Positions 629 through 28,465 of a DNA stretch of 44,976 bases are shown one piece after another. The DNA is from a virus. The position numbers were made by a program, and so were the translations under genes. A model generated the notes under the pieces. That model was not told the DNA's origin. It did not search any database and worked only from the letters and a program-made list of their open reading frames with translations. The stretch lies in the IMG/VR virus record IMGVR_UViG_3300027895_000002, positions 1 to 44,976 of that record. One strand, given 5' to 3'. Within the stretch, counting starts at the first letter, position 1. The number at the start of each line of letters is the position of its first letter.

Positions 629-630
629 CG

Positions 631-4929: not shown

Positions 4930-6674
4930 TATTCCACAATGCAGTCCACCGTCCCTGTATAGGTTCCGGCGTTCCCAATCGTAAATCCTCCAGTCCCGGC
5001 ACTCGTGTAGTAAAAGGCCGCAGGAGGAGGAGTGCCACGAGCGGTCAGGGCGACCTGATAGGTGGTTCCTGCCAAGGTAGCACCATTCGGGAAACCCACT
5101 GTGGCGGTTGCCGTGCCTCCAGTAGGAGTCACCGGCTGAAAAGCCCCGGCCATGAGCTGGGCGAACTTCAACTTGGTAAAGAGTTGCACTCCGGTTCCAC
5201 CTACTGTCAAGCCACCGGCAAATAAAGCCCCACCCGCCCCGCCTTTGTTGAGGAAGAGCTGCCCGTTACCGCTGTAGGAGCCACCGGAGAAGTTACCCCC
5301 GCACCACGTACCCGCATTGGCATCGAAGATGTTCTGATTCTGAATGAGGGGCGAGAGCTGCCAGTAAGTTGCATTCGGGGGCATTTGATTGACGTTTGCC
5401 AGAATGCAGTAATACTGCAAGCCCTCCTTGACGAGTGCTCCACTGCCATAGGTACTCGCAGAGTTCCACGCGGCTCCCTGAGCGGCATAGGGTTGAAACT
5501 GTCCTACCGAGACGATGGGAGCATTGGTTCCGGTGGTCATGATTTCAGGTACCACCGCACCGGCATTAAAACTTACAATGAGATAGTCGATGCGGGTATT
5601 GGCGGCGTAGTAAATGGGAACCGCTCCGGATACGGGAGCCTCGATCTCTATGAACCCGACATGCCCCTCACCGATATTCACGCAGACCGTCGCCCCGTTA
5701 GCCGCAAAGCCCAGAGGGCCTGTGACCTCCAGTTGGTTGATCGCAATGCCAGAACCTAGAATGGAGACCCCATCGGTATTCAGGTCCTGAATGAACCCCA
5801 TCTCACCGATGTTGCACGTCATCGTCACCCCTTTGCAGCCGAAGTCCCTGAAGGTGATGTCGTCCATCCACGCTTCTGTCCCGTAGACCGTGGTGTCTCC
5901 TGCCAGATACCCGTAGGAATATGCAGTGGGAGTAGAGGCAGAGATGTTCCCATACATGCTCCATCCGGTGAGACGGATCTTCTGGGCGTTGGTCGCGTAA
6001 AATGCGATCCCTGTCGCTCCTGGTTTGCAGACAAGATTAGATTCCCACCTCCCCTGTCCGATCAACTGTCCCCCGGCAGGGCAGACGAGTTCCGAGACGA
6101 GATAGTTAAAAGGTCCTAAATAAGCAGGCTGTCCTACCAAAGACATCGCAGTATTGATCGGGATCGTCATATCGGTTCCGGTGGAACCGTTGATCGAGGC
6201 GTAAATGACACCCGAAGAGATGTAGCGCTCGGGATATCCCGGAGGGAAGGCGGTATTGGTCGGCGTAACGCTGTCGTTCTTTTCGACCTGAGTTTGGGGA
6301 TAAAGAATAGACCCCAAATACTGTGCGGTGAGAAGCTCGGTGAGGTCTGACGTCGTAATGATGCCCTGAGCGTAGGTTACGGCCGACTGGATACCGTTCA
6401 CCGTCCTGATGGCACTCGTCGGAGGATTGGTGTCGTTCGGAGGCGAGTAGACGAAAGTGTAGGTGAGTGCGGGGTCGAGCCATACCGTCGCAGACCCGTT
6501 GGAATCAAGCACAATGGGATTGGTGTTGAGCGTGTCCTGTGTGCTGTCGGTCCACGTAGATTGGGGAGTGGTGGTTCCCGAGATGAAGGTGAATAGCAGA
6601 AACCCCACAGCAGGCTGACCCGTGGCAGGGTTCAGAAACTGCAACTGCATCGTCGGGGAGATCGTCACACTCAT
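4926..6674 (-). CDS. Tailspike / tail fibre (receptor-binding protein)
   Basis: The N-terminus (QFLNPATGQP..G.LLFTF.SGTTTPQSTWTD...NPIVLDSNG) matches the common tail-fibre N-terminal domain pattern. Ser/Thr/Gly-rich beta-rich body. Its position after the ejection genes matches P22 gp9. Confidence 0.7.
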   Translation of the reverse strand: MSVTISPTMQLQFLNPATGQPAVGFLLFTFISGTTTPQSTWTDSTQDTLNTNPIVLDSNGSATVWLDPALTYTFVYSPPNDTNPPTSAIRTVNGIQSAVTYAQGIITTSDLTELLTAQYLGSILYPQTQVEKNDSVTPTNTAFPPGYPERYISSGVIYASINGSTGTDMTIPINTAMSLVGQPAYLGPFNYLVSELVCPAGGQLIGQGRWESNLVCKPGATGIAFYATNAQKIRLTGWSMYGNISASTPTAYSYGYLAGDTTVYGTEAWMDDITFRDFGCKGVTMTCNIGEMGFIQDLNTDGVSILGSGIAINQLEVTGPLGFAANGATVCVNIGEGHVGFIEIEAPVSGAVPIYYAANTRIDYLIVSFNAGAVVPEIMTTGTNAPIVSVGQFQPYAAQGAAWNSASTYGSGALVKEGLQYYCILANVNQMPPNATYWQLSPLIQNQNIFDANAGTWCGGNFSGGSYSGNGQLFLNKGGAGGALFAGGLTVGGTGVQLFTKLKFAQLMAGAFQPVTPTGGTATATVGFPNGATLAGTTYQVALTARGTPPPAAFYYTSAGTGGFTIGNAGTYTGTVDCIVEY

Positions 6675-7993
6675 GAGTAACTCACGTCTTTCGCGTAGCC
6701 GTGCTTCTGCAATTCCGGCAACTCGCTTTCAAGCTTTTCACCAATATCGTCCCGGTACATCATGTTCGGGATGTGGAGTTCCTTAACGGTTGAATAAGCC
6801 CTGTCGCAAGCCTGCCTTACGGTCTTGCCCATGCCTGTCACAACAGCAATATAGTCCCCTGTAGTCGTCCACAGATCCCGCTCCACTACCGCATCCCCGT
6901 CCATATCAGGCATTTTCTCGATCTTCACCGATTGCGGGGCAAGATACTTTTTGTTGGCTTCAGTCACGCCATAGATCGGAATGTCCGAAACCTCGGCTTT
7001 GGTCAGTTTGCTATTGGGATAGTCTGGTTGTGCAATCACTACCCCGCAAGCCACAGCAGGAGAGGTCTGCAAGGTGTCTTCCCCCTCGCAGGCATCAAGC
7101 ATCCACTGAACGGGATCGCCTTTGTGGGCGGCCTGCATGATATTGAAGGCAGGCCAGCCAAGACGGGTGGTGAACTCAAGCGGCCAAGCCTTGCCTTGCT
7201 TGTCCACAATACAGTTCACGTCAATATCCCCAAGGTGCTGCATCTCTACCAGAGCATCCTCCAGAGGATCTAACACTTCCTCGGCAAGCTTGGACTCCTC
7301 GGTGTATTTTAGAACCGTACCGGCTTCTCCACAGTTGGGTCCACAGTCTCCAGATAAGAGCTTCTTGAACTCCCAATTAATGTTAGGAGGTCCAATGAAC
7401 CCATCCGCTCCCATCCATCTGCTGACACCTAACTCTATGCCGTCAATTACCTCTTGGAGCATCACAGGTCCTTTAGAAGCCATGCCTAGTTTCTGCCACC
7501 TCTGTAAGCGTGCCACCATGTCGGCAGCGGACTTACTGACGTAAGAGAGTGATTTATCGTCCTCACTGCCGAGGGTCTTAAAGACATAACGGTCGGGCTT
7601 TGATCTGACGTGCTCTTCAGCTTCTTTGAGATTGGCGAACTCCTCCCATTCGGGTACGTCGATGCCGTGATCCGTGAAGAATTTCATTCCTACTGCACGC
7701 TCAACTTCCAGCTCTGCGGACTTCTTCGAGGGGCCGAATACCTTGACGCCCTGCTTTCTCAAAGCATCTAGCTTCGGCACGAATTGGTGATTGCCAGAAG
7801 GCACCACGAGGTCCGCCCACTTGACTGAGGAAAGCCAGTTCTCCACCCGCTCCACACCTTTGAAACCTTTTCCGGTCTCCTTGTGGTTCTCGGGAGCCAT
7901 CCAGATCCGTACCGTATGACCTGCTTTGACGCAGCGGATTGCGAAGGGGAGCATCTCGCCTACAGAATCCATTGAGAGTAGAAGCACCTTCAC
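6671..7993 (-). CDS. ATP-grasp enzyme, phosphoribosylamine-glycine ligase (PurD/GARS)-like
   Basis: Collinear with PurD over the full length. MKVLLL start; KVFGPSKKSAELEVERAVGMKFF (PurD: K.FGP...AA.LE.SK.F.K.F). GPNCGEAG in place of the NTGGMG loop; LEFTTRLGWPAF (PurD: IEFN.RFGDPE). C-terminal GDYIAVVTGMGKTV..A...AY......YRDDIG. Confidence 0.85.
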   Translation of the reverse strand: MKVLLLSMDSVGEMLPFAIRCVKAGHTVRIWMAPENHKETGKGFKGVERVENWLSSVKWADLVVPSGNHQFVPKLDALRKQGVKVFGPSKKSAELEVERAVGMKFFTDHGIDVPEWEEFANLKEAEEHVRSKPDRYVFKTLGSEDDKSLSYVSKSAADMVARLQRWQKLGMASKGPVMLQEVIDGIELGVSRWMGADGFIGPPNINWEFKKLLSGDCGPNCGEAGTVLKYTEESKLAEEVLDPLEDALVEMQHLGDIDVNCIVDKQGKAWPLEFTTRLGWPAFNIMQAAHKGDPVQWMLDACEGEDTLQTSPAVACGVVIAQPDYPNSKLTKAEVSDIPIYGVTEANKKYLAPQSVKIEKMPDMDGDAVVERDLWTTTGDYIAVVTGMGKTVRQACDRAYSTVKELHIPNMMYRDDIGEKLESELPELQKHGYAKDVSYS

Positions 7994-9435: not shown

Positions 9436-10936
9436 CGGATTTCTCCCATGATTCCTTCTTGGAGGGGTCGCCCCCCTTATACCGATAACCCTGCTCCACA
9501 GCCCCTACGGCTGGCGCACCTGAGGGCTGTGCGGGCGCTGAAGGGGTGGAGGCATCCTTCCCCGTCACCCCAGTAAGGCTCTCCTCCACGCCACCCTTAG
9601 AAGCTTCTATGCCCTGTAGGACGGTTTTCTTGATCTGCTGGAACTGATCCTTGGTAATAAGATCCGGGATAACCTGTGCGGACTCATGCCTGGCGGCATC
9701 TGTCACCTGTCCGCCCTTGGATAGCACGATGGAGTATTCGGCCCTAAGCTCTGCCACAGCAGCCTTGTAGGCTGATAGCTTGGGGTCCGACTCCTGCTCC
9801 TTGCCCCACTTCGAGAACTCACCCGCCGCTTTAAGAGTAGGAAAGTCCACCGCATTGACGGCTTTCTCGGCCTGATCCAGGAATCCACCCGGTTTAGTGA
9901 TGGACTTCTCGACCGGCAATATCGCAGCTTCCCTGCGGCCTAAGACGCTGGCCTCGGTCTTTTCAGCTCCAAGCGAGAGCTGACCGGACTTCACCATGTC
10001 TGCGATCTCATCGGGACTCTTGCCGGGATTACGCGACAGCAAGCCTTGGAATAGCGCCTGTTGCTGAGCCTTGGAACGCATACCTGCAGGAACAGAAACG
10101 CCCCTTTCAGCTAAAGCCCCCATGAGGTCTCCGATCTGCCCCCCGAAGGAACCGGCATTCTGCTTCGCGATGTTGATGCGCTCTTGGCCCTGCTGCTCCT
10201 CGACTTTACGGTGTTGCTGCTCGCCCCGAAGGTTAGCCGCCTGCAAGGGTTGATTGGCTATCTCACCCTTGGTCCTTAGAGCATCCAGAGCATCTTTAAT
10301 CTGCTTAGTCCCCTGAGGCATTGATTTCCACACATCGTTCAAACGATCAAACGTGATCGGCATAGGCTGTCCGTTGGGGCCTTTGGCCGAAGTAAACCGC
10401 CCGAGAGATTGCAGCAGAATCTCCTTTAGCTTCGGGTCCATGTTCGGGTCGTCCTTGATATCGGCGGTCTCCTTGGCAATTGCTCCAATCGTCATGGCAT
10501 CGCGTGTTTTGGCGTCATACTTGAGCGCCCCCGTGTCAGTAGTGGCACCGGCAGAGGCCACGATGGCACCGACTTTCTGCGCCTGAAAGTCATGTGCAGC
10601 GCTGTAGAGCTCTAATTGGGCCTGCTGTTTTGCAAGCTCTCCTGATGCTGCTTGCTGGGAGAATTTGAGTAACTCCATCCCTTTGTCGGGGGAGACCCTA
10701 GCCACCTCCCCTGCAAGCTTGGAGGCTCCCTCGGGGGTGGAAAGATCGGCCCCCTTCTGCTTGAAGATCTTCGAGACTTCCTGCTCTTCGGCTTCCTGCC
10801 TCTTAGCTCCCGCAAGCTTCAACTGGTTCAACTGGTTCGTGTCGATCAGGTCCTTTAACTGGAATCCTTTCGACACGGCACCCGTCATATCGGCGTTATC
10901 GCCAATAGAGGCTATGGGACTGGGATCGAAGGCCAT
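9428..10936 (-). CDS. Internal virion / ejection protein candidate (P22 gp20 position)
   Basis: 502 aa, Q/K/A/E-rich and helical. Assigned by synteny. Confidence 0.45.
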   Translation of the reverse strand: MAFDPSPIASIGDNADMTGAVSKGFQLKDLIDTNQLNQLKLAGAKRQEAEEQEVSKIFKQKGADLSTPEGASKLAGEVARVSPDKGMELLKFSQQAASGELAKQQAQLELYSAAHDFQAQKVGAIVASAGATTDTGALKYDAKTRDAMTIGAIAKETADIKDDPNMDPKLKEILLQSLGRFTSAKGPNGQPMPITFDRLNDVWKSMPQGTKQIKDALDALRTKGEIANQPLQAANLRGEQQHRKVEEQQGQERINIAKQNAGSFGGQIGDLMGALAERGVSVPAGMRSKAQQQALFQGLLSRNPGKSPDEIADMVKSGQLSLGAEKTEASVLGRREAAILPVEKSITKPGGFLDQAEKAVNAVDFPTLKAAGEFSKWGKEQESDPKLSAYKAAVAELRAEYSIVLSKGGQVTDAARHESAQVIPDLITKDQFQQIKKTVLQGIEASKGGVEESLTGVTGKDASTPSAPAQPSGAPAVGAVEQGYRYKGGDPSKKESWEKSGG

Positions 10937-12107: not shown

Positions 12108-12391
12108 GCCAGTGCTCCTGTGGCCGTAACCCAGTTAGTCCCGTTGTACCAGATCGGATGCCCCAGAGTGCCGTCAAAGAATACTTGCCCGATGTAAAGG
12201 TTTTTCGTGGGGCGGTTGGCCGTTAACCCGGTCTGTGCTAGGGGCGCAGTGACCCGATAGACCGATTGGAACCACGCCTGATAGTCGGGGGATAAATGTC
12301 CTGGTTTGCCTTTCTGATCGGGATGCAAAATACGAGGACTCTGAGGCACCGGCCCCAAGCCTTGAAGGATAGGATTGATATTGAAGGGCAC
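12104..12391 (-). CDS. Small tail protein (tail-fibre-like C-terminal motif), start re-assigned
   Basis: Track ORF 12104..12577 overlaps the upstream gene by 187 nt. A GTG at 12391 overlaps the upstream TAG and follows GAGG. The C-terminus LYIGQVFFDGTLGHPIWYNGTNWVTATG resembles a motif seen in phage fibre proteins. Confidence 0.45.
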   Translation of the reverse strand: MPFNINPILQGLGPVPQSPRILHPDQKGKPGHLSPDYQAWFQSVYRVTAPLAQTGLTANRPTKNLYIGQVFFDGTLGHPIWYNGTNWVTATGALA

Positions 12392-13827
12392 TAGCCTAAC
12401 CTCGCGGCGGGTTGTCTCTCGGAGAGCTTTATCGCCCCTTCGGTAATCACAAACTTCACAGGGTCGGTCATTCTGATCCTGAATACATGGTCTCTCGCAG
12501 AACCAAAGCGCCGCCAGCTCACCCGGTTCAAATACTGACCCTGTGCTCCCAATGGACACCATCTCTGTCCGCTCCACGTCCTGCCATTATCCCTGCTGTG
12601 CTCGCAGGAGACCATTGGATTGATCCCCTGACCCGTCGTAAGTCCTACCCCTGTCTCCATGTCGAGGTACAGAAGGTTGACCCGGATGCGGTTGAAGTTG
12701 GAGAGGACATGTCGAGTGACGATCTCCCTCACAATCATCTGGCCGTTATCCGTGTAAAGGCTCGAACTCATCTCATAAATCTGGTTCGTCTGGTAGTCGG
12801 ATATGAAGTTCTTTCCCGCCGCGTAGGTCGAGAGATTGCCCCAATGGCGGGTAGGGGAAAGAGAGTTGCCGGTCTGCACCTCGCTCAAAATCCCTGTTGA
12901 ATTATCGTAGATCCACGAACGGTTAGCAGTAGGAAAGGTGATCTGGTACATGATGTGGTGGTCCTGCTGGTAGGTCAGGCACACCGCATCGGAGACCGTT
13001 GAGAACCTGTTCCAGATGTACTCCGTATCGGCATCGGATATGACTTGTGGTGAGTAATTCGAGAGCTTGACGAGCTGCACAATCCCCTGCTTCGTAATGC
13101 CTAAAAAGATGATCGACTGATCCGCATGAGCACGGGAAAATACTGCCGCCAGTCCCCACTCGTTGTAAGCCGATAGAATGGGCTGAAACGGTTGGGGTGT
13201 TGCTCCGACGTTCTGCCAGAATTCCTGATGCTGACCCGCAAAGATGATGAGGATGCCGTTTAGTTCATCTGCCGCAAGGATCGTATCTTCGTTGGACGCC
13301 GCATCCGCAAAAGCAAGCGCATTCCACGTCGAGCCGTCAAAGGCATTCGACACCCAGAAGGTCTGCGTTCCGGGTTGTTCAGCGACGAAAAACCCCGAAC
13401 AGAAAGTGACAGTTCTCGCTCCTTGGGCCTGCCACGGGACAATCGGCTGAAAGGTCTGAGTCTTGATATTGAAGTAATATCCGGTAAGACCATCGACCAC
13501 CACCACCTGAGTAGGGGAGGTCTGTATCGTCGCAAGCGTTGCGGAGCTATTGACCGGACCACTCGCTAAAGTCGCTCCCGTTACAGGATTGACCTGAAGG
13601 AACTGATTATTTGCCACAGCATAGAGATAGTTAGCATCTCCCGATAGAGCGCGAAAGGGAGAGGTGCCTACCGTGAACATGGGGTTTAAACCAGGTGTCC
13701 CGTAGATCGCGACCTTGCTCTTATCCCCGTCAGGACGGTTCTCGTAGTAGACATTGAGGCGACGCTGACGGGTCACCACTCGGCTTTTACCCGTGGTGCC
13801 AGAGCCAAAGAGCGGAATGGATTTCAT
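12391..13827 (-). CDS. Tail nozzle / DNA-stabilisation protein (P22 gp10-like position and N-terminal pattern)
   Basis: N-terminus SRVVTRQRRLNVYYE...KVAIYGTPGL follows the pattern of gp10-type tail hub proteins. Beta-rich, 478 aa. Lies directly after the adaptor gene. Confidence 0.55.
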   Translation of the reverse strand: MKSIPLFGSGTTGKSRVVTRQRRLNVYYENRPDGDKSKVAIYGTPGLNPMFTVGTSPFRALSGDANYLYAVANNQFLQVNPVTGATLASGPVNSSATLATIQTSPTQVVVVDGLTGYYFNIKTQTFQPIVPWQAQGARTVTFCSGFFVAEQPGTQTFWVSNAFDGSTWNALAFADAASNEDTILAADELNGILIIFAGQHQEFWQNVGATPQPFQPILSAYNEWGLAAVFSRAHADQSIIFLGITKQGIVQLVKLSNYSPQVISDADTEYIWNRFSTVSDAVCLTYQQDHHIMYQITFPTANRSWIYDNSTGILSEVQTGNSLSPTRHWGNLSTYAAGKNFISDYQTNQIYEMSSSLYTDNGQMIVREIVTRHVLSNFNRIRVNLLYLDMETGVGLTTGQGINPMVSCEHSRDNGRTWSGQRWCPLGAQGQYLNRVSWRRFGSARDHVFRIRMTDPVKFVITEGAIKLSERQPAARLG

Positions 13828-14831
13828 GGCTCGTAGGGACTTCCAGAGTCCCTTTGAAAGTAGAACGATGTGACTTCCGCATCCTGCTGCTGGGCGAAGG
13901 CCAAGGCTTCTGAGAGGTTCTCCTTCATTTCATCGGTCCACGAGGCATCGAACATTCCGCAGATCTCTCTGGAAAGTCCCCAGCACAAAGGCCGATACCA
14001 CTGCTGGGGGTAAGCAGGATTATCGACGGGGTTCGTGATATCGGAGATGGGATTCAGGTAGACGATATGTAAGAGCTTCGTGACGTCCTGTGCTCCACCC
14101 ACATCGATATAAAGCTGACCGTTTGAGGTCGCGGTAGAGGTGCCGATCTGGCTTTCGTAATATATCGCGGTAGGATCGGACTGGAAAGTGTTGCTGGTCT
14201 TTGTCGGTAAGAGTTCATAGTCCTCCAGCGTCATTTTGTTCATCGGGGTATCGTTGGCGAAAGTATCCCTCAGAATACAGGTCTCGATCTGCAAGGGTCT
14301 TTGCTGTTTCGTCGTGTAGTTAAAGACCTGTGCATTGGCGTTCGCATTACCCGTAAGAGGTGCATTCAAGCCCACTAACCCGTTGCTATAAGAGCTGACA
14401 GTCGTCCAGAAGAGATCTGTTCCTATGAGGATGCCGATGTAGTCATTCTGATTCATGACGGTAGGAGTGTTGACCGAGATATTGGTCGCCCCCTGACCGG
14501 CATTGGAGGCTAAAGTCGTTGAGTTATAGGTGAGGTTCGGAGGGTTTCCGGTAGTAAAGCCCGCCCAGTTATCTCCTGTGGGTCCCAGTTGATACTGATA
14601 CTGAGTGAAGCCCAAGAAGAGATCTCCCCGGGCTCGGCTCCACATTTTAAGCCCCGGGGCGAAATCCTGCTTTGCCATCCACGATTTGACGAGGAGATTA
14701 AGCTTCCTCAGACAGTCGTTGAATTCCTGTGCCGTGGGAATTTCCGCTTCTCCAATGGCTCCGATATTCAACATGGCTTCATTGATGATATCGGTGGCCG
14801 TGACCGTGAAGATATAAGTGCCGGTAATCAC
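13824..14831 (-). CDS. Head-to-tail adaptor (P22 gp4-like)
   Basis: The N-terminal helix pattern DIINEAMLNIGAIGEAEIPTAQEFNDCLRKLNLLVKSWMAKQ matches the gp4-type adaptor signature (I..AL..LG......P.........L..M...W). Synteny supports the call. Confidence 0.6.
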   Translation of the reverse strand: MITGTYIFTVTATDIINEAMLNIGAIGEAEIPTAQEFNDCLRKLNLLVKSWMAKQDFAPGLKMWSRARGDLFLGFTQYQYQLGPTGDNWAGFTTGNPPNLTYNSTTLASNAGQGATNISVNTPTVMNQNDYIGILIGTDLFWTTVSSYSNGLVGLNAPLTGNANANAQVFNYTTKQQRPLQIETCILRDTFANDTPMNKMTLEDYELLPTKTSNTFQSDPTAIYYESQIGTSTATSNGQLYIDVGGAQDVTKLLHIVYLNPISDITNPVDNPAYPQQWYRPLCWGLSREICGMFDASWTDEMKENLSEALAFAQQQDAEVTSFYFQRDSGSPYEP

Positions 14832-16405
14832 GCCCTCAGTTCCTTCTTCGTGGCGTCAGTGATTAAATTCCACACTGGACGGTAGATCTGATCGAAGCTG
14901 ATGTCCTGCTGGCACTGTGCGGTCGAGGTTTCTGCTTTCTGGCAGTGCGACCAGTTGTAGTGCATTTGATGGCAGGCGGGAGCTTCGTTCCTACCCCTTC
15001 CCGGACAGTGAGTGTTCTCGCTCCAGATCGGATATACGTTCGTCCAGTCACGCGTGAGGTTCTCGTGGGTCGAGTGGGAAAGTAATACGACTTTGGGATA
15101 ATCGAATTGGGATGCGGCATTCATCAAACCCGTTTCGGGTCCTATCGCCATATCAACCGTTGCCATGAAGGCAAGCGACTGTCGGATAGACCACTGACCA
15201 CAGGTTCGGTGGACACGTTTCTCCTTCTCCCAGCCTTGTTCAAGAATCTTGGCCGCCTCTCCTCCCAGTAACACGACATCGACGTTGGGGAAGTCGAGCA
15301 TCAGGGATGCGATGACGTTATCCAAACAGGCATGTGTTTTGTGGACCGAGGAACCCGCAAGCGGCCACGCCACCACGTACTCGCCCATCTTCGCCCGTTG
15401 TTTCTTCGCCCACGTCCTCTCATCCTCGGTGGGGAAAAAGCGGATCTGAGGCTTATGGGGTACTTCTGCAATGGCATGCTGCAATTCCAGATAGTTCATG
15501 TTCATGATCTTGTGGCGGATCGCAGGAGGCCAGTGGTGCTGTGTTCTCCCGGGTATGGCGAGGAGCGACCCCTCCACGCTTTCCGACAGGTTCACCCATT
15601 TGTCGTATTTCTTCCGATGATAATCCCAATACTCACCCAGAAGATGATTAGGGACTTGGTCCTTGTCCTGATAGTAAAAAGCGTCGATGTTCGGGTCGTT
15701 ACGCACGACTTCATCACCCGGAGGAGAGGTGTAAAGCGTGACGTGGTAACCTTGGGCTTTGAGGCCCGCGAACACCGACGAAGCCTGAAGGAGATCCCCG
15801 AATGCCCCGTAGCGGACTAACCCACAGGACTTCTTAGGAGGCTCCTTCTTCTTCCAACTCTCCGTCTGTCCGGAGTTCATCTTCCTGAATACGAAGTAGA
15901 GAGAGTATTCCCTCTCCTGATTCCGTTTCTGAAAGTCCACAAGATCCCAGCTACCTGCCCCTCTCATGTACTGGATCACCCGTTCATAGTTCACGTTCCA
16001 CTTGTGATCGGGATTTGCCCCTTCCTCTCCCACCTTCGGGTACTCGTCCTCATCCGGAAGGTAGAGCGTCAAATATCCTTTTGGCTTGATGATCCTCATC
16101 CAATCCCTTAAAGCTCCTGTGACTCTTTCGGGTGCAATGTGCTCCAGCAAGTGAGAGGAAAAACAGAAGTCCATCGAATTAGAAGCGAACATCTCCATGC
16201 GCTCGGCGCTCGGAACGCAGATATCGGGTTTTATGGGATGACCGAAAAGAGCTTCATCGGCCTTGTTATCGACCCCGATGAAATGGGGATAGAGCTTCTC
16301 GATGCCACAGCCGATATCAAGTCCTCTGCCCCTTGTGTATTGCACGATTTCCCACTTCACTTTCGCGGATTCGTTGCACTGGGGGTCGGTTATTTTCCAA
16401 GTCAT
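14828..16405 (-). CDS. Fusion protein: N-terminal class I SAM-dependent methyltransferase + C-terminal glycosyltransferase family 9 (heptosyltransferase-like)
   Basis: MT domain (aa 1-185, about 15851..16405): LDIGCGIEKL (motif I), GVDN, MDFCFSSHLLEH, IIKPKGYL. GT9 domain (aa 190-525, about 14828..15850): LVRYGAFGDLLQASSVFAGLKAQGYHVTLYT, NDPNIDAF, VVAWPLAGSSVHKTH, VVLLGG, SLAFMATVDMAIGPETGLMNAA, then a Cys/His-rich tail. ATGA overlap with the adaptor gene. Confidence 0.85.
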   Translation of the reverse strand: MTWKITDPQCNESAKVKWEIVQYTRGRGLDIGCGIEKLYPHFIGVDNKADEALFGHPIKPDICVPSAERMEMFASNSMDFCFSSHLLEHIAPERVTGALRDWMRIIKPKGYLTLYLPDEDEYPKVGEEGANPDHKWNVNYERVIQYMRGAGSWDLVDFQKRNQEREYSLYFVFRKMNSGQTESWKKKEPPKKSCGLVRYGAFGDLLQASSVFAGLKAQGYHVTLYTSPPGDEVVRNDPNIDAFYYQDKDQVPNHLLGEYWDYHRKKYDKWVNLSESVEGSLLAIPGRTQHHWPPAIRHKIMNMNYLELQHAIAEVPHKPQIRFFPTEDERTWAKKQRAKMGEYVVAWPLAGSSVHKTHACLDNVIASLMLDFPNVDVVLLGGEAAKILEQGWEKEKRVHRTCGQWSIRQSLAFMATVDMAIGPETGLMNAASQFDYPKVVLLSHSTHENLTRDWTNVYPIWSENTHCPGRGRNEAPACHQMHYNWSHCQKAETSTAQCQQDISFDQIYRPVWNLITDATKKELRA

Positions 16406-16414
16406 CCGTTCTCC

Positions 16415-17722
16415 TTACGTGGTCGGCTGCACGATGAACCACGCCACCGTACTGGTGTCGTTGCTTTGGGATGCGAGAATCGTGAACGAGGTTCCGGGAG
16501 TTCTCGCGGAGACGCCAAGTGCCGAAGGGCTCGTAACGGTCCCAAGAGATTGCGCGGTCAGTTGAATGCGGGAATTGGCGGCTACTTGAGTATTATTAAC
16601 CGTTACCGTGCCAGCAACCAATGTTGCAATTCCGGAACTGCAGCCTCCAGTCCCCTCCGCTATATAAAGAGCGCCCCCCGGAGTCGATAGATACCAATTG
16701 CCGGTTTGATCTACGCCAACATTTCCATTTTGAGTGATTAAGCTGATTGATCCCGTGCCCAGCGCATTGATAAGGAGCGTGGCATTGGTTGCGGGACTTC
16801 CTCCGACACCAATAGCGTTAAGCATTACAGTGGGAGGAGTAGTGGCGGGAGTTGTTGTTATCTGCAAAGAACAATTTGGCGATGTCGGGGTTGCTGAGAC
16901 CTGGAATTGCGGCGTGATGATCTCATTGACCGAATACGTCCCGCGAAACCGCATGCCATACTGACAGGCGGTATTGAGGCTGGAATTAAGGAGCGAGCCG
17001 GTAACGGCTTTAGCACCTGAGGTCGAATTGAAGAAAATGCCATCGCCAAATGCAGCGGTGGGATTTCCCTGAATCTGCAACGCATTGACGGAAGGCTGCG
17101 TGCCGATTGCGACACAGACAACTCCATACGAAACACCTCCTGATGCAAGGCACACCGAATCGACTTCGATGGAGATGGAATTAGCCCCAGAAGCAGAAGC
17201 CACGCCAGATGAGTTCATGCCCCATGCGTGGGCACCCGAAGCGGCGGCTTCTCCTTGTGCAAAATCAGCTACGGTATTGCCCCCTCCGGTGACCTTGGCG
17301 TACTGCGCTCTTAAGAAGACGTTGTGATAGGAGCCGTAATTGCTCCCGTAGTTCATCGACAGGAGGTCGGTTGCGTAAACCGGAGGTACCGCATAAGAGA
17401 TGAGGTTATCTACGCGATAGAGCCCTCCGGTGAAGGACACCGAGGGATCGACATACGACCAGACATTCCCCGCTGGTAGGAAGTCATCGCCTGCAAGGGT
17501 AATGACGGTAGGAGAGTAGGGGGAGAGAGAGACAAGCGACCCCAGAACCCCGCCGAGGGGTGCCCACACCCCCGTCGCGGTGACGACCATGACGCCCTGA
17601 TCGGAAGTGATGCAGAGCTTGCCCGGAGCGTAGTTGGAGGCGGCGTACGCGCCGACTAGCTGACTGGAGAGGAATACTCCATTGCCTTGGGGGTTTCTGA
17701 GCCATGCCTCATCGTAGGCCAC
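16415..17722 (-). CDS. Ser/Thr/Gly-rich beta-rich virion surface protein (head or tail fibre-like)
   Basis: 435 aa. Repetitive G/S/T/N/A composition. The C-terminal GTVTVNNTQVAANSRIQLTAQ...FTILASQSNDTSTVAWFIVQP looks like an Ig-like terminal domain. Sits in the structural operon. Confidence 0.5.
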   Translation of the reverse strand: MAYDEAWLRNPQGNGVFLSSQLVGAYAASNYAPGKLCITSDQGVMVVTATGVWAPLGGVLGSLVSLSPYSPTVITLAGDDFLPAGNVWSYVDPSVSFTGGLYRVDNLISYAVPPVYATDLLSMNYGSNYGSYHNVFLRAQYAKVTGGGNTVADFAQGEAAASGAHAWGMNSSGVASASGANSISIEVDSVCLASGGVSYGVVCVAIGTQPSVNALQIQGNPTAAFGDGIFFNSTSGAKAVTGSLLNSSLNTACQYGMRFRGTYSVNEIITPQFQVSATPTSPNCSLQITTTPATTPPTVMLNAIGVGGSPATNATLLINALGTGSISLITQNGNVGVDQTGNWYLSTPGGALYIAEGTGGCSSGIATLVAGTVTVNNTQVAANSRIQLTAQSLGTVTSPSALGVSARTPGTSFTILASQSNDTSTVAWFIVQPTT

Positions 17723-17969: not shown

Positions 17970-19151
17970 CTAGAAAGTTGTAATCACCACGCAATACCCT
18001 GCGCCTCCATTGCCTCCGTTACCCCCAGCCCCACCCGCGCCTGCTCCTCCGCCACCGCCGCCGGATCCAATCCCTCCATTTCCACCCACGCCCCCGGCTC
18101 CTGAAGCGTTAGCTCCACCACCAGAGCCACCGCTGCCTCCGAGATAAGGAGAGGTCTGCGCGCCTGGATTTCCATTGCCACCTCCGGTAGAGCCGCCTGA
18201 CGGAGATGCGTTCGCGAAGTTGTTGCCGCCTGCACCGCCTATAAAAGCCGTTGTGGCGCTAATGCCCCCTCCGGAACCGCCGCCGCCTGCTGCCAGATAA
18301 GCGGGTCCACCTTTTGTTCCGTTCGCTCCCTGTGGCCCGCCCGCACCCGCACCTCCTCCGACTCCGGTTCCAGCTCCCAAAGCTCCCGCGCCACCCGCAC
18401 TGCCACCCGCACTGCCACCCGTGGCACCCCCGGAGGCACTAGTGGACGAACCACCGGCTGCGATTGCGCTTGCCGCACCGCCGCCACCTGAATTTGTAGC
18501 CGCAACTTGCCCGCCCGCACCTCCGCCGCCGCCGAAGGCAGTGAAGTAGGGAGTGGTGCCAAAGCTTGAATTATTCCCAGCACTCGCGTTGCCCCCGGCA
18601 TTTCCCGCTCCAGAAGTCGCCCCCGAAGCTCCTGAGACCGCCGTAGCTACCGTCACGGTCTCGGTCGAATTGTAAGCCGAGGCAGGAGCCGTGGCGTCTA
18701 TGAGGAAACCCGCGCCTCCGCCACCGCCGCCCGAGACCGCAACACCGAGTGTTACCGAAGAGCCTCCTCCACCTGCTCCGCCCCCACCTATCAGAATCAC
18801 CCGGACACTCTGAGGAGTGCCAGAGGGCTTGGTCCAAGTACCGGAAGAGCCGAAGGTTTGTATGTTGATAGGAGCCGCTATTCCCCCAAGAGCAATCACA
18901 TCTGAGGCCGCTGCCGCTGAAATCGCTGTCCCGTTCCCCTTCAGAACTCCGGTAATAGTGGTGCTCAGCGTAATCGCAGGAGTCGTGGTTGCTGTAGCAA
19001 CAGTACCCGCAAGCCCGTTGGCACTGACGACAGAGACACTCGTGACCGTCCCTGCTCCGAGCCCGGCAGCGCTGTAGGCAAGCCCCGTGGCAGGATCTAT
19101 CAGTACAATCGCCTGTGGAGCATTGATATTAGGGATTGGGGGAGCGGCCAT
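17970..19151 (-). CDS. Glycine-rich fibre-like protein (N-terminal PNIxAP module, long GGxGG C-terminal region)
   Basis: N-terminus MAAPPIPNINAPQAIVLIDPATGLAYSA. About 250 aa of Gly/Ala/Ser repeats ending GGNGGNGGAGYCVVITTF, as in glycine-rich domains of phage fibres. Confidence 0.65.
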   Translation of the reverse strand: MAAPPIPNINAPQAIVLIDPATGLAYSAAGLGAGTVTSVSVVSANGLAGTVATATTTPAITLSTTITGVLKGNGTAISAAAASDVIALGGIAAPINIQTFGSSGTWTKPSGTPQSVRVILIGGGGAGGGGSSVTLGVAVSGGGGGGAGFLIDATAPASAYNSTETVTVATAVSGASGATSGAGNAGGNASAGNNSSFGTTPYFTAFGGGGGAGGQVAATNSGGGGAASAIAAGGSSTSASGGATGGSAGGSAGGAGALGAGTGVGGGAGAGGPQGANGTKGGPAYLAAGGGGSGGGISATTAFIGGAGGNNFANASPSGGSTGGGNGNPGAQTSPYLGGSGGSGGGANASGAGGVGGNGGIGSGGGGGGAGAGGAGGNGGNGGAGYCVVITTF

Positions 19152-19339: not shown

Positions 19340-19753
19340 CTAACTCCGATCTAAGACGTTGTTCCTTTCCAGGAAGCCCGTAACACCGTCTACGGTGATC
19401 TCGTCATAAAATGCGTCTTGATGTTCGCGTGTGTACATGTCTTCAGTCGGAGACATCCTGAGCGGCACAAAGCCTCTGGTGAAATCACCCCCAGCAGGAT
19501 TATCCGTCACATCGTCCGTCCCTCCAGTCACAGTACGCATGGAGGGAATGTCTTTGACCGCCTGAGACTCGATCACCTCACCCGGGGGGAGATAATTCAT
19601 CCGGTAGCCATAGGACTGATACTTCCCGGACTCTTCATGCCGTGTCTGCAAGCCTTTGCGGGTACGGGCGGATGCGTCGGAGGCCCAAACATGGCTCTCC
19701 GACTGTGCTCGCGGAGCTACGACCTCCATCTTTTCCTGAACGATTCGGCTCAC
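19340..19753 (-). CDS. Hypothetical virion-module protein with an NYLPPG.VIE.QA motif (paralogue of 19750..20001)
   Basis: Shares RMNYLPPGEVIESQAVKDIPS with the upstream gene's MFNYLPPGMVIENQANADIRS. Confidence 0.55.
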   Translation of the reverse strand: MSRIVQEKMEVVAPRAQSESHVWASDASARTRKGLQTRHEESGKYQSYGYRMNYLPPGEVIESQAVKDIPSMRTVTGGTDDVTDNPAGGDFTRGFVPLRMSPTEDMYTREHQDAFYDEITVDGVTGFLERNNVLDRS

Positions 19754-20001
19754 GAGGACGCCCAGCCATCATCGGGATAGGAAATCCCACCCGAATAGTT
19801 TTTCATCTTCTGGGAGCGGATATCCGCATTGGCCTGATTCTCGATCACCATGCCCGGGGGCAGGTAATTGAACATGGCCTTGTTCCCTGAAGGAGTGCCT
19901 TTCTTGTCCAAATAGCCCGTGTCCTTGATGCCCGCATGATCGAGGGACTTGCCTTCTGAAGTCGGTAACACCTTGGTATCGGGTGCGCCTTCCTGTTCCA
20001 T
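19750..20001 (-). CDS. Hypothetical virion-module protein with an NYLPPG.VIE.QA motif
   Basis: See the paralogue; ATGA overlap with it. Confidence 0.55.
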   Translation of the reverse strand: MEQEGAPDTKVLPTSEGKSLDHAGIKDTGYLDKKGTPSGNKAMFNYLPPGMVIENQANADIRSQKMKNYSGGISYPDDGWASS

Positions 20002-20009: not shown

Positions 20010-20456
20010 CTAGCTCAATACGGAAGCTAAATGCTGTAGTTCGTAGTCTACACTCACCACGACTTTTGCGGTCGCATCCGTCCCCAACTGCACGTAGAGT
20101 TCGGAGTACGCGGGGATCATGGCATTCGACAGGGAGAGCGCATCAGACCCTCCCGCCTGAGAGACAGTTCCCGCACCTCCCACGACATAAGGCCCGAAGG
20201 TCGTTGTGGTGAGAGCCACCGTGGTAGTCGTGCTCGTATTGCTTACGGCATAAAGACTCACGGTCTGCGCACTCGTCGTAGCACTGTAGGTCGAGGTGCC
20301 GATCGTATCCATGTAGGCGTTCAACGCCTTCAGGATGAAGTTGGCGTAGGTGACGTACTTGGAAACCGCTGCATTCCCGGACAGCATCCCGAAGTTGATC
20401 GAGTGCCGGATACGGTAGTTCTGGTCGTCGTACGTCGGGTAGGTTGAGTAAGGCAT
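20010..20456 (-). CDS. Thr/Ser-rich capsid accessory (decoration/cement) candidate, paralogue of 20457..21080
   Basis: Shares the YDD/YDNPTY start region and the IGTSTY core with its neighbour. Lies downstream of the major capsid gene. Confidence 0.5.
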   Translation of the reverse strand: MPYSTYPTYDDQNYRIRHSINFGMLSGNAAVSKYVTYANFILKALNAYMDTIGTSTYSATTSAQTVSLYAVSNTSTTTTVALTTTTFGPYVVGGAGTVSQAGGSDALSLSNAMIPAYSELYVQLGTDATAKVVVSVDYELQHLASVLS

Positions 20457-21080
20457 TTATGCCATTACCACGCCGTTCGGAGCCGCAACAGAATATTCGA
20501 TCACCGGAACCGTGGTGAAGGTCGCATCCGTCCCGCCGATGAAGGTGATGTAATCGCCGGGATTCATGTAAACCCCGCCCGAAGTCTGGCCGCCACCGGG
20601 CATTCCCAAGGAATAGGTGGCCGTCCCCCACGCCTGAGTCGTGTTCGTCCCTCCGAGAGTGTTAAAGCTGTAGCGCCAGTATCCACCTACTCCTCCGACC
20701 CCGGGGACGTTGACGTTGGTACCCGCAGCTCCCGTACCGCCGATGTAGAAGGGGCCTGTTGCGGCAGCTCCTAAGGTAGTGGTCGCCAGAGACACTGCCG
20801 TGCCAGTGGTATTGGTGTTCGCAACAAAGAGCGCGTAGTACGAACCACAGGAGGTCGTGGCGGTACCGTTCACCGTGTAGGTGGAGGTGCCAATCGCACC
20901 GACGTTAAAGGTCACACCACACAAAGTAAGCTGCGTCCACGCAAAGAACTTGCCAGTGGTCTGTGCAGACCCGGCAGAAGTCAAAGCCATTGCATAGGAC
21001 TGGCGGGTGAGATAGGTCGGATTGTCGTACCCCATCGAACGGGTGACGACGTTGGAATTACCTTGCTGCTGTGTAGCCAT
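20457..21080 (-). CDS. Thr/Gly-rich capsid accessory (decoration/cement) candidate
   Basis: 207 aa, beta-rich. GAIGTSTYTVNGTATT. Position immediately after the MCP gene. Confidence 0.5.
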   Translation of the reverse strand: MATQQQGNSNVVTRSMGYDNPTYLTRQSYAMALTSAGSAQTTGKFFAWTQLTLCGVTFNVGAIGTSTYTVNGTATTSCGSYYALFVANTNTTGTAVSLATTTLGAAATGPFYIGGTGAAGTNVNVPGVGGVGGYWRYSFNTLGGTNTTQAWGTATYSLGMPGGGQTSGGVYMNPGDYITFIGGTDATFTTVPVIEYSVAAPNGVVMA

Positions 21081-21140: not shown

Positions 21141-22112
21141 TTATGCCGCAGAGTCCCATTTGACGATGCGGACGTTTATCGCGAGAGTATGGACGATCCC
21201 AAACCCGCCAAGGTAATACCAGGCGATACCTTTCGACCGCCCATAGTCGGTCGGGAGCTTGCCCCGCATTTCCTCAGGGATTGCAATCGCCTCTGCAACG
21301 GTGTCGTTGCCGAAGAAGAAAATCCAGTCCGATAGACCGTTCACCCACGGCAGGGTCGTGATGCCGTCGGTTCCCAATCCTTTGGCAATGTTGGTCTGCT
21401 CGATGTACCGGGTGTTCTCGTACCGTCCGATCTCACCGTTCATGATGAGATTAAAGCCGGTGTCGGAATACTGGTGGATCGATTCCAGGGCGTTCTTGAA
21501 GGTCCGTAGGGTCGTCGGCCACGCAATCGAGTAGTAATCATCCGCGATGTACGCCGGGATGTTGCGCTCCTTCATGCTGTCCACAATCGCCTTGGCGTGG
21601 TTGTTGTTGTAGGCGATGGAGTTCGTGCCCGTCACCGTGCCATTGGTGTAGAGCGTCACGGCGGTCGCGGAAGTACCCCCGGTGGGAATGACTCTCAAGA
21701 GCGTCTGGTTGAACTGGCCCCATGCAAGACGGTCAACCGACTTCACCGTGTCATTCTTAAGAGCTTTCTTGATGATGTCCTCAACGGGGAACTTCGACAG
21801 ATTGTCGAGCTTCCCGGAGTACGGTACCGAGTTACCGGCTTCCGTAATCGTCAGGGTGCCCTGAGTGATCGTGAAATTAGTTTCAGGCAGGGTATTGGTT
21901 TCAAGTAGGACCCCACCTGCCGTAGCAACGTCTGAGATGACGTCCCACGTGAAGGTATCGCCCTTCTTCTTGCCCTGCTGAGAGATGTCGTGAACGTCAG
22001 AGAACTGGCGGAATTTCACCAGCGGCTGAACATTCATGCGTAAGACGTTAGAAAGCTGCCGGGAGTAAAAATATCCTCCAAGCGAGTTTACTGCCCACAC
22101 CTGACCGGCCAT
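21141..22112 (-). CDS. Major capsid protein (HK97 fold)
   Basis: Typical MCP N-terminal series: VWAVNSLGGYFYSRQLS...QPLVKFRQF......GKKKGDTFTWDV...TLPE...T.GTLTITEAGNSVPYSGKL. 323 aa. Follows the scaffold gene. Confidence 0.9.
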   Translation of the reverse strand: MAGQVWAVNSLGGYFYSRQLSNVLRMNVQPLVKFRQFSDVHDISQQGKKKGDTFTWDVISDVATAGGVLLETNTLPETNFTITQGTLTITEAGNSVPYSGKLDNLSKFPVEDIIKKALKNDTVKSVDRLAWGQFNQTLLRVIPTGGTSATAVTLYTNGTVTGTNSIAYNNNHAKAIVDSMKERNIPAYIADDYYSIAWPTTLRTFKNALESIHQYSDTGFNLIMNGEIGRYENTRYIEQTNIAKGLGTDGITTLPWVNGLSDWIFFFGNDTVAEAIAIPEEMRGKLPTDYGRSKGIAWYYLGGFGIVHTLAINVRIVKWDSAA

Positions 22113-27760: not shown

Positions 27761-28465
27761 TTAGAAGCCCTGATTTTCAAAGAGTAGAAGCCCACTCGAA
27801 GCGGCTGATGCTGGGAGATAGGTAGATACATTAGCCACCCACTCCCCTGCCGTGGCCAGAGTGCCGAAGTTAGCCGTTACTGCCGCATTCGATGCCAACT
27901 GCTTATACGCCACTGAGGTCGGAAAGTGATTATTGGTCGTGTCCTGATAGATATTCGTCCACCCCGAAGGGGTACCCCATCCACCGACAGGATAGGTACC
28001 ACTCTGATCTCCCAAGCACGATACGGCAATGGCTAGGTCGGTGGAGCTTCCTAAAGTACCTGTAGCTCCGCTAGAAACAGGACCTGTGTTCTGAGTGGAT
28101 TCCTGATCCACTCCCGTTCCGGTATCAAAGGTATTCAAACCGGACCATTCGGTGAGGATCGCCTGCCCGTAGGAGTTAGCCGAAGTGCCGTACTGTGCGG
28201 TTGCGGTAACGGTATGTGTTCCGGCATTCGCGGTGGAGAGTCTCATAATGTCGCAGGAGAACCGTGAACCGCCATTCTCCTGATCGATGCCGTAAGTACC
28301 CTGAGAGTCAGAGGCCACGATGATGGTACTGCCGTTCGTGGCGTCGAAATTTGCATGCGTGACGAGAAGGATCAACGTGTTTCCTGATGCCACTCCCGAT
28401 AGCGTCACGGTCGTTGCGAGAGTGGCGGCAAAATACCCGACGGCAGAGGTTTGAATCAGGCTCAC
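27761..28465 (-). CDS. Hypothetical jelly-roll/lectin-like protein, start re-assigned
   Basis: GTG at 28465 overlaps the TGA of the giant gene (GTGA). The track ORF extends to 28501 inside the upstream gene. Confidence 0.5.
   Translation of the reverse strand: MSLIQTSAVGYFAATLATTVTLSGVASGNTLILLVTHANFDATNGSTIIVASDSQGTYGIDQENGGSRFSCDIMRLSTANAGTHTVTATAQYGTSANSYGQAILTEWSGLNTFDTGTGVDQESTQNTGPVSSGATGTLGSSTDLAIAVSCLGDQSGTYPVGGWGTPSGWTNIYQDTTNNHFPTSVAYKQLASNAAVTANFGTLATAGEWVANVSTYLPASAASSGLLLFENQGF

Follow-up and report, generated by a model that had tools for sequence, protein, structure and literature searches.

The chlorovirus PBCV-1 modifies its capsid glycan with A064R, a protein with two glycosyltransferase (GT) domains followed by a methyltransferase domain. 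Once the adjacent GT domain has supplied a rhamnose, the methyltransferase domain methylates this sugar at O-2; another, separate enzyme adds a further methyl group to the glycan, in a system of A064R with A061L (PMC9614988). In cluster O mycobacteriophages, as summarized in PMC11600133 (citing Freeman et al. 2023), an O-methyltransferase and then three glycosyltransferases modify the capsid and the tail tube. TibC, which together with AAH represents the bacterial autotransporter heptosyltransferases (BAHT), holds an iron with Cys339, Cys342, Cys358, and Cys370 in an insertion of its C-lobe (PMC4358343). Other phages encode GT-B enzymes that heptosylate 5-hydroxymethylcytosine (5hmC), together with a bifunctional enzyme resembling haloacid dehalogenases (HAD-like) and aminoglycoside phosphotransferases, and a cytidylyltransferase (Burke et al., bioRxiv 10.1101/2023.12.21.572611). 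Here we analyzed the IMG/VR virus record IMGVR_UViG_3300027895_000002 (positions 1 to 44,976, the whole 44,976-nt stretch, hereafter the window), which contains a gene, designated MT-GT, for a 525-amino-acid (aa) protein that combines an S-adenosylmethionine (SAM) methyltransferase with a GT9-type heptosyltransferase (14828..16405 including the stop codon, minus strand). The assignment draws on the open reading frame (ORF) and its translation, Pfam, AlphaFold (AF2) models, and 403 related viral contigs. The best explanation, held with middling confidence for the whole, is that the product is a soluble, cytoplasmic two-domain enzyme made late, from the structural operon. It may well glycosylate and methylate a protein of the head module, namely a virion acceptor.

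An earlier, sequence-only reading of the window had placed a 525-aa ORF at 14828-16405 without naming the strand. The ORF exists and runs on the minus strand, starting with ATG at 16405..16403, and a Shine-Dalgarno sequence, AAGGAG (16411..16416, minus strand), can be read 5 nt 5' of the ATG. All motifs quoted in that reading are in the translation: LDIGCG (residues 29-34), DFCFSSHLLEH (79-89), and IKPKGYL (106-112) of the methyltransferase, GAFGDLLQ (200-207), NDPNIDAF (236-243), and GPETGLMNAA (422-431) of the GT9 series, and a Cys/His-rich tail comprising Cys467, Cys478, Cys488, Cys498, and His479. The overlap noted there of the stop codon with the start of the following adaptor-like gene is also real and spans 4 nt, but its letters are GTGA, with a GTG start, and not ATGA. 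Both genes and their overlap are reproduced by independent gene callers on identical contigs from three metagenomes.

Residues 1-185 (15851..16405, minus strand) form a class I SAM-methyltransferase domain, as indicated by Methyltransf_11, the fold, and invariant residues. Specifically, Pfam Methyltransf_11 matches residues 57-113 with 32.3 bits (cut-off 21.2), and the same family is matched in 34 of 34 family members. L29, G32, and D46 do not vary, conservation of D30 and G34 is 90% or higher, and D79/F80 and the SSHxLEH segment at 83-89 are conserved as well. Residues 1-185 thus combine a profile match above threshold, a Rossmann fold, a Gly-rich motif I (LDIGCG, 29-34), and an acidic residue after β2, as in class I enzymes. 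The fold matches are small-molecule and O-methyltransferases, such as 2p8j, 3e23, 1vlm, and TehB.

Residues 190-525 (14831..15838, minus strand) form a GT-B domain of the heptosyltransferase (GT9-like) type, according to AF2, Foldseek, and hhalign. With the single MT-GT sequence, phmmer against the PDB and a PHROGs search gave nothing useful. The family profile (109 sequences) matches the GT9 structure 3tov with an E-value of 4.3e-6 and E. coli WaaF with 2.4e-4. In profile-profile alignment with hhalign, the family matches E. coli WaaF with 93% probability (E 2.5e-7, 300 columns) and WaaU with 87%, while the match to WaaC is local only. Pfam Glyco_transf_9 is matched in 12 of 34 close relatives, with a best E-value of 2.5e-9. 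The full-length AF2 model has a mean confidence (pLDDT) of 88.6 and a predicted template-modelling score (pTM) of 0.84; with a deeper alignment, the GT domain reaches pLDDT 97.5 and pTM 0.93. In Foldseek, the solved structures nearest the GT domain are, in order, 3tov (2.5e-14), WaaF (8.3e-13), a GT9-like chloroplast NDH subunit, WaaC (~1e-8), and TibC (1e-7), and every other, non-heptosyl GT-B enzyme has a query-normalized TM-score (TMq) of at most 0.43. Sequence identity of the GT domain to GT9 structures is ~12-15%.

The catalytic residues of GT9 enzymes can be located in the domain. Asp204 of the G-D motif (codon 15794..15796, minus strand) aligns with Asp13 of WaaF and WaaC and is the predicted catalytic base; G203 and D204 are invariant in the 109 sequences, down to ~30% identity. 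Lys356 (codon 15338..15340, minus strand), predicted to bind the ADP phosphates, aligns with WaaF Lys195 (in GPAKRW), which corresponds to WaaC Lys192, and is invariant in the same set. Glu424-Thr425-Gly426 (codons 15128..15136, minus strand) correspond to the D-[ST]-G sugar-nucleotide motif of GT9 and align with WaaF D269-S-G; they are at least 90% conserved, with a conservative change of Asp to Glu. In the longer donor-binding motif, D-[ST]-G-x-x-H, the His is replaced by Asn429. Thus, the C-terminal domain has the GT-B fold with GT9 enzymes as its best structural matches, and the catalytic Asp and Lys positions, singled out beforehand as those to inspect, are present and invariant. By fold, catalytic residues, and the Cys4 motif described below, the domain qualifies as a divergent member of GT9. 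The proposed fusion of a SAM-methyltransferase to a GT9-type heptosyltransferase is therefore borne out by profile, fold, and catalytic motifs.

The tail contains a Cys4(+His) knuckle, C467-x10-C478-H479-x8-C488-x9-C498 (14912..15007, minus strand), a predicted structural metal site. Across the 109 sequences, C478 and C498 never vary and conservation of C467, C488, and H479 is 90% or higher; the region is modelled at pLDDT ~97-98. Within the wider family, C-x2-C-H-x9-C-x10-C is the most frequent pattern; in the clade of the window, the first knuckle contains a loop of 10 residues. A CxxC...C...C motif occurs at the same place, before the last helix, in N. gonorrhoeae WaaF, whose tail reads CSPCFKRECPLGHTDC, and in GT9 enzymes of Fusobacterium and Paraburkholderia; E. 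coli WaaF and WaaU and a Salinivibrio GT9 lack it. The Cys4 tail is thus a generic feature of GT9 in expanded form. The sequence-only reading had proposed comparing this tail with the iron finger of autotransporter heptosyltransferases. As a pointer to a protein substrate, the comparison fails, because ordinary lipopolysaccharide (LPS)-type GT9 enzymes carry the same motif; the tail supports GT9 membership and is uninformative on the acceptor.

The argument from a TibC-like iron finger to a protein substrate accordingly falls away, as the Cys4 motif is generic to GT9 and no sequence link to TibC was found. Specifically, TibC was not matched at E <= 10 by the single sequence, by two family profiles, or by a C-terminal profile, and NCBIfam gave no match to a TibC/AAH family. 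The N-terminal β-barrel of TibC is absent from MT-GT, the corresponding residues 1-185 being the α/β Rossmann methyltransferase, and the genome neighbourhood of MT-GT has no autotransporter gene. With no sequence link, no β-barrel, and no autotransporter, MT-GT is not a BAHT member.

The GT domain is recurrently combined with methyltransferases. A clustered protein search returned 2,628 matches, the best 120 of them full-length with identities of 59-100%, and an exhaustive search with the GT domain only returned 749 clusters at 50% identity, 319 of them with E <= 1e-30. Among 150 family cluster representatives, Methyltransf_11 is present in 77, another or unrecognized N-terminal extension in 19, and no extension in 54. 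Further members have the GT9-like domain fused to FkbM, to FkbM and Methyltransf_11 (MT11), or in the order MT11-GT9-GT-A-FkbM. In the related locus L219, the parts are separate ORFs lying side by side: one for a TylF-like methyltransferase comes first, followed by those for a free-standing GT, a Methyltransf_11 protein, and another GT, while in L004 a TylF-like methyltransferase gene directly precedes MT-GT. TylF and FkbM are families of sugar or natural-product O-methyltransferases. Because unrelated methyltransferase folds have been recruited repeatedly, TylF and FkbM being of the sugar type, a methylated glycan product is supported. Coupled methylation and glycosyl transfer, expected earlier from the fusion itself, gains from this recurrence beside or within one polypeptide of Methyltransf_11, FkbM, and TylF enzymes. 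The full-length pTM also suggests that the two domains would form a fixed unit, as far as the model can tell.

The structural block of relatives encodes further modifying enzymes, namely the TylF-like O-methyltransferase directly upstream of MT-GT, an Asp/Asn β-hydroxylase-like cupin (PF05118), and a GNAT acetyltransferase. They are found at 9522..10001 and 15245..16287 of L004 and 14941..15531 of L005.

The genome also encodes enzymes for making the probable donor. A sugar cassette (35222..38212, minus strand) lies immediately upstream of the terminase genes. It contains an HldA-like heptose-7-phosphate kinase (35798..36586, minus strand), which matches PfkB and TIGR02198 rfaE_dom_I with E 6.5e-72 and 242 bits, below the equivalog cut-off of 345, and an HldC-like heptose-1-phosphate adenylyltransferase (35222..35626, minus strand), which matches CTP_transf_like and TIGR02199 rfaE_dom_II with E 2.8e-24. 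HldE combines these two activities, which are the committed steps to ADP-heptose. Because the phage encodes both, ADP-heptose is independently supported as the donor. No equivalents of GmhA or GmhB were seen in the cassette. The remaining genes encode a 107-aa cupin (36756..37079, minus strand; Cupin_2) and a 382-aa GT4 glycosyltransferase (37064..38212, minus strand; Glyco_trans_1_4 and NCBIfam GT4 families). Homologues of the cupin occur in L096, L097, L117, and L157, and of GT4 in L096 and L097. Since a viral scan with HldA alone gave 3 loci, we used a terminase-anchored scan and local tblastn instead. HldA and HldC lie upstream of the terminase in 7 of the 7 relatives common to the MT-GT-anchored and terminase-anchored sets. 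The layout of the cassette (kinase, nucleotidyltransferase, and a BshA/MshA-like GT-B enzyme) loosely recalls the reported phage clusters that heptosylate 5hmC.

MT-GT is situated in the head module. The gene order is major capsid protein (MCP; 21141..22112, minus strand; phrog_1357), accessory and fibre-like genes, MT-GT, an adaptor-like gene, and a P22 gp10-like gene. The adaptor-like gene (13824..14831, minus strand; 335 aa, GTG start) matches phrog_12985 with E 1e-18 and, weakly, the head-tail adaptor phrog_637. It is directly upstream of the gene for the P22 gp10-like tail hub or packaged DNA stabilization protein (12391..13827, minus strand), identified by phrog_578 (E 8e-85), PF11134 Phage_stabilise, and tblastn to podophages. 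The phage thus has a P22-like tail hub, and its portal is of the SU10 type. The placement of MT-GT between capsid and fibre accessory genes and the adaptor, as described from the sequence, is right in outline, although the fibre-like and Gly-rich genes belong to this phage alone and are no conserved partners of MT-GT. A virus-encoded GT and methyltransferase therefore stand among the structural genes, between MCP and adaptor, which is the arrangement expected of virion glycosylation.

This location is conserved. In a first comparison of 86 loci, made up of the best 80 IMG/VR loci around MT-GT matches and six from exact look-ups, MT-GT is followed by the adaptor-like gene in 80 and by the gp10-like gene in 74. 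The 403 IMG/VR contigs with MT-GT relatives represent a large clade of uncultivated phages, including prophages. In an independent sample, MT-GT is present in 9 of 9 terminase-anchored loci that reach at least 4.2 kb past the MCP start. It lies constantly 2–6 kb downstream of the capsid gene, including where tail genes differ. Median identity within the clade is 57% for MT-GT, 56% for the portal, 51% for the adaptor, and 50% for the hub; only the MCP (86%), a PurD-like ATP-grasp protein (64%), and the terminase (62%) exceed MT-GT. To judge from these sequence comparisons, MT-GT behaves as a core gene of the morphogenetic module and not as a moron.

The more distant relatives define the partner of MT-GT. 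In distant prophages, the order TerL, portal, MCP, MT-GT is kept, but adaptor and hub no longer follow MT-GT; in one of them, L185, small ORFs of 120-220 aa stand there instead. A more distant lineage (L220/L221) has a Terminase_3-type terminase and a Pfam SU10_adaptor. In this lineage, a 1,038-aa MT11-GT9-(GT-A-like)-FkbM protein is encoded directly after the MCP gene, and MCP and MT-GT are the only proteins of the window that are recognizable, and they are adjacent. Because adaptor and tail genes are replaced while MT-GT stays beside the MCP gene, the conserved linkage is to the capsid gene and head module, and not to the adaptor. Translational coupling to the adaptor gene had been read as a clue to function. 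The overlap exists in the window, but it is missing in L004, and the adaptor itself is swapped in distant relatives. The case for the adaptor as conserved partner or substrate is weakened accordingly, since the adjacency of MCP and MT-GT outlasts adaptor and tail genes and the 4-nt overlap is not universal.

Among cultured strains, prophage-like copies are found in Paraburkholderia sp. C35 (NZ_QBUY01000010.1, at ~48-70 kb), P. rhynchosiae WSM 3937 (NZ_PNXY01000026.1), and Aromatoleum anaerobium LuFRes1 (NZ_WTVG02000039.1), and the clade is also represented in metagenome-assembled genomes (MAGs) of Polaromonas, Janthinobacterium, Nevskia, Rhodocyclaceae, and others. On the basis of these carriers, the hosts are Gram-negative, mainly Beta- and Gammaproteobacteria. 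Among cultured phages, tblastn found no match to MT-GT in 50,697 phage records (INPHARED). A locus with a 61%-identical MT-GT and a full head and tail block (L170; CAVVLX010000006.1, 521374..542954) lies on a 942,606-bp contig labelled as a Thermoplasmata archaeon MAG; such a host is unexpected for a P22-like prophage, and the label could reflect mis-binning, misclassification, or something more interesting. Some relatives have interrupted genes. MT-GT is split by ~580 bp in L175 (4498..6609), and an interruption of ~1 kb divides the MCP gene of L181, L185, and L188, three prophages or MAG contigs; in L219, an HNH endonuclease gene (233..736) lies beside the MCP gene. Taken as a set, these cases hint at mobile introns, inteins, or homing endonucleases.

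The following mechanism would account for the data. MT-GT would act as a GT9-type inverting heptosyltransferase, with ADP-heptose bound in the C-lobe by Lys356 and Glu424-Thr-Gly. Asp204 would serve as the general base and heptose would be transferred to a hydroxyl of an acceptor held by the N-lobe, with the Cys4 knuckle as a structural metal site presumably inherited from ordinary GT9 enzymes. The class I methyltransferase would then use SAM to O-methylate the glycan, most likely on the newly added heptose; this step is modelled on A064R, in which the methyltransferase acts on the sugar from a neighbouring GT domain. The HldA-like kinase and HldC-like adenylyltransferase would raise the supply of donor, and the GT4 enzyme and cupin of the cassette would probably add or alter another sugar. 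This scheme builds on the domain identities, conserved catalytic residues, ADP-heptose genes, core-gene status, and capsid linkage described above; the donor, the order of reactions, the target of methylation, and above all the acceptor are what we infer from them.

The likeliest acceptor would be the MCP or the Ser/Thr-rich proteins encoded after it, giving a glycosylated virion surface. Two such proteins, of 207 aa and 148 aa with 25-26% Ser and Thr by composition, are encoded at 20010..21080 (minus strand), and homologues of the 207-aa protein are found in 31-40 related loci. We speculate that they are decoration proteins and candidate acceptors. For a virion protein speaks that MT-GT lies within the late structural operon, is a core gene, and is tied to the capsid. 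The Ser/Thr-rich proteins themselves, the further protein-modifying enzymes (Asp/Asn hydroxylase-like, GNAT, and ATP-grasp) that relatives encode in this block, the neutral-to-acidic N-lobe, and the precedents in mycobacteriophages and chloroviruses point the same way. Two other proteins of the block, encoded by the fibre-like (16415..17722) and Gly-rich (17970..19151) genes, are unlikely as a general substrate, as both genes are confined to this phage and near-identical copies.

Several observations weigh against this interpretation. The evidence for a virion protein is entirely positional, and the acceptor is a candidate only. The closest relatives by profile and Foldseek E-value are LPS-core enzymes and not protein glycosyltransferases. 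On this sequence alone, Pfam Glyco_transf_9 (PF01075, residues 304-465) scores 18.8 bits, under its gathering threshold of 22. The methyltransferase could target something besides a sugar. HldA and HldC adjoin the GT4 gene rather than the GT9 gene and may primarily serve GT4. They were not seen 3-10 kb upstream of the terminase in four other MT-GT relatives; with seven relatives carrying it and four without, the cassette is frequent and not obligatory, which fits hosts that already produce ADP-heptose. Finally, Vibrio phage D65 has a 54%-identical MCP and no MT-GT, so the enzyme is not required by the capsid type.

The alternative that survives best places the reaction at the host envelope. 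At the inner membrane, a methylated heptose would be transferred to an acceptor that is lipid-linked or part of the LPS core, and would alter the cell surface; this might keep other phages from adsorbing, or progeny from adsorbing to debris, or provide a receptor-masking glycan. We regard this as unlikely, in its reaction as in its effects. The best sequence and fold matches of MT-GT are LPS heptosyltransferases (3tov, WaaF, and WaaC), and its Cys4 motif is that of WaaF-type enzymes; however, its N-lobe lacks the basic character of the WaaC and WaaF acceptor domains. Specifically, the isoelectric point of the acceptor-side N-lobe has a family median of 6.5 (net charge -2), whereas E. coli WaaC has 9.8 (+7) and WaaF 9.4 (+5). 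WaaF and WaaC bind anionic Kdo2-lipid A (Kdo, 3-deoxy-D-manno-octulosonic acid), and a neutral-to-acidic N-lobe, as predicted from sequence, would count against an anionic lipid or DNA as acceptor. The hosts inferred from prophages are Gram-negative Proteobacteria, and the LPS cores of such bacteria usually contain heptose. The related phages are temperate, with prophages in isolates, and surface conversion is known for temperate phages, but MT-GT lies in the middle of the late structural operon, not near an integration or immunity region, and should be silent in lysogens. It is moreover a core gene, conserved like the portal and found beside the capsid gene across lineages, unlike conversion morons. 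A GT4 enzyme, typical of LPS and exopolysaccharide pathways, is encoded in the same genome, yet no membrane segment and no flippase or Wzx-type partner were seen among the neighbours of MT-GT.

Another role on protein is quite improbable in our estimate. The target could be a host factor or non-structural phage protein, the methyltransferase could modify protein residues, or the enzyme could be packaged and ejected to act in the next host. The Methyltransf_11 family is broad, TM-score and rmsd place TibC no farther away than the LPS enzymes (TMq 0.59-0.62, rmsd 5.6-6.0), and the structural block of relatives contains the Asp/Asn β-hydroxylase-like, GNAT, and 64%-conserved PurD-like ATP-grasp genes, but nothing points to any particular non-virion target, and the recurrent pairing with sugar-type O-methyltransferases (TylF and FkbM) and extra GT domains argues for the building of a glycan.

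DNA hypermodification, in which phage-made ADP-heptose would glycosylate modified bases with MT-GT as part of the pathway, has very little to recommend it: phage GT-B enzymes that heptosylate 5hmC are reported (bioRxiv 10.1101/2023.12.21.572611) and the window has a cassette of kinase, nucleotidyltransferase, and a GT4 enzyme that is BshA/MshA-like, as are the reported DNA glycosyltransferases, but precomputed Pfam matches in the non-structural half of the genome include no cytosine methyltransferase, TET/5mYOX dioxygenase, or ThyS-like hydroxymethylase, the 50 best structural matches listed for the GT9 domain, which matches heptosyltransferases, do not include T4 β-glucosyltransferase, the N-lobe has no basic character, the methyltransferase is of the Methyltransf_11 type and not a DNA methyltransferase, the gene lies in the head module, and such a pathway would suit the GT4 cassette better than the MT-GT gene.

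Other features of the window are as follows. Its two ends carry an exact 127-bp repeat (1..127 equals 44850..44976), giving a unit genome of 44,849 bp, and because of this terminal overlap the window represents a complete circular assembly; contigs of ~44.9 kb recur across several samples. An ORF of ~324 aa crosses the junction of the circularized window. Between head genes and MT-GT, the fibre-like gene (16415..17722, minus strand) encodes a 435-aa Ser/Thr/Gly-rich protein with a C-terminal K1-lyase_C match (E 5.6e-23), and the Gly-rich gene (17970..19151, minus strand) a 393-aa protein with 31% glycine. Among the 86 loci, both occur only in this phage and near-identical copies, and the segment 16415..19151 looks like a lineage-specific insertion. 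Adjacent proteins of 137 aa and 83 aa (19340..20001, minus strand) both have an NYLPPGxVIExQA motif and therefore look like paralogues. The pair is kept in ~65-68 of the 86 loci, between MCP and MT-GT, and no family match was found for it. At 6671..7993 (minus strand), among presumed ejection and tail genes, is the PurD-like ATP-grasp gene (GARS_A/GARS_C; TIGR00877, E 1e-33), which at 64% is conserved above the portal in the clade and may encode a protein-ligating ATP-grasp enzyme. A 1,548-aa ORF between the large terminase and the portal region (28462..33108, minus strand) has no tblastn match in 169 related loci and is a large lineage-specific gene. In phage records, tblastn with E. coli WaaF gave only apparent host-DNA contamination and one weak metagenomic match; MG065686.1, MG065691.1, and OR845414.1, named as Campylobacter or Escherichia phages, contain an E. 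coli-type waaF of 85-100% identity, probably as contaminating host DNA.

The domain composition of MT-GT is not new in itself, as IMG automatic annotation labels the domain pair ADP-heptose:LPS heptosyltransferase / predicted SAM-dependent methyltransferase, and BFVD contains structurally similar stand-alone GT9-like proteins of uncultured phages. In the literature searched, no paper was found that describes a GT9-methyltransferase fusion in a phage, phage ADP-heptose genes linked to it, or heptosylated virions; the reported cases of virion glycosylation that we found concern mycobacteriophages and giant viruses. If MT-GT does modify a virion protein, phage particles would be decorated by a widespread methyl-heptose glycosylation chemistry fed by a phage-encoded supply of ADP-heptose, and there would be a second route, besides TibC and AAH, by which an LPS-type heptosyltransferase gained a protein acceptor. 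In its fullest form, which we put forward tentatively, a capsid-linked core enzyme heptosylates and O-methylates capsid or decoration proteins with phage-made ADP-heptose, a GT9 enzyme having been recruited to a protein acceptor separately from BAHT in hundreds of soil and freshwater phages. This would bear on the stability of the virions, their recognition by hosts and predators, and the immunogenicity of Burkholderiales phages. ADP-heptose is an innate-immune agonist in animals, and side effects of interest may follow from phage genes that increase its production. If MT-GT instead remodels LPS during lytic growth, it would still be unusual, as a gene for altering the cell surface with the behaviour of a core gene of the structural operon. 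The question can be answered experimentally, because prophages with the gene reside in cultured Paraburkholderia and Aromatoleum strains.

Compared with the LPS enzymes of GT9 (WaaF/RfaF, WaaC/RfaC, and the Veillonella enzyme 3tov), MT-GT has the same GT-B fold, G-D Asp, Lys, D/E-[ST]-G motif, and CxxC...C...C arrangement, and probably the same donor, ADP-heptose. It differs in the methyltransferase fusion, the location in a phage head module, an identity of ~12-15%, the replacements of Asp by Glu and of His by Asn, a smaller, non-basic N-lobe (four strands in the model), and the expanded Cys4 spacing (x10/x9/x9 vs x2/x4/x6). With the BAHT enzymes TibC and AAH, MT-GT would share the use of ADP-heptose; it has four conserved Cys at a comparable place, towards the end of the C-lobe, and its N-lobe likewise has four strands (PMC4358343 for TibC). 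In Foldseek, the TM-score of its GT-B core to TibC is similar to that for the LPS enzymes (0.59-0.62), and the rmsd is the lowest among the matches. A protein acceptor would be a further likeness if MT-GT acts on the virion. Unlike in TibC, where the Cys are at 339/342/358/370, the spacing of the Cys is different, and a methyltransferase replaces the β-barrel.

With the phages that heptosylate 5hmC, the present phage probably has in common phage-encoded heptose transfer along with sugar-activating enzymes. Their glycosyltransferases, however, resemble T4 β-glucosyltransferase, BshA, and MshA and are encoded beside 5-methylcytosine (5mC)-methyltransferase and TET genes, whereas MT-GT is GT9-like. 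The mycobacteriophage clusters, as far as the source describes them, likewise pair phage GTs with an O-methyltransferase for virion proteins, but they belong to actinobacteriophages and consist of separate genes, while in MT-GT the domains are fused and the hosts are Gram-negative. To our knowledge, neither heptose nor GT9 has been reported for these clusters. A064R is rhamnosyltransferase-based, with GT-A-type domains, UDP-rhamnose, N-linked glycans, and a eukaryotic virus; its folds and sugars are unrelated to those of MT-GT, and the likeness is one of architecture alone. Both are nevertheless virus-encoded, soluble, multidomain proteins that unite GT and class I SAM-methyltransferase domains, and the extra methyltransferase of the chlorovirus is paralleled by the TylF-like and FkbM enzymes in relatives of MT-GT. 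By analogy, A064R would be the closest functional precedent for MT-GT.

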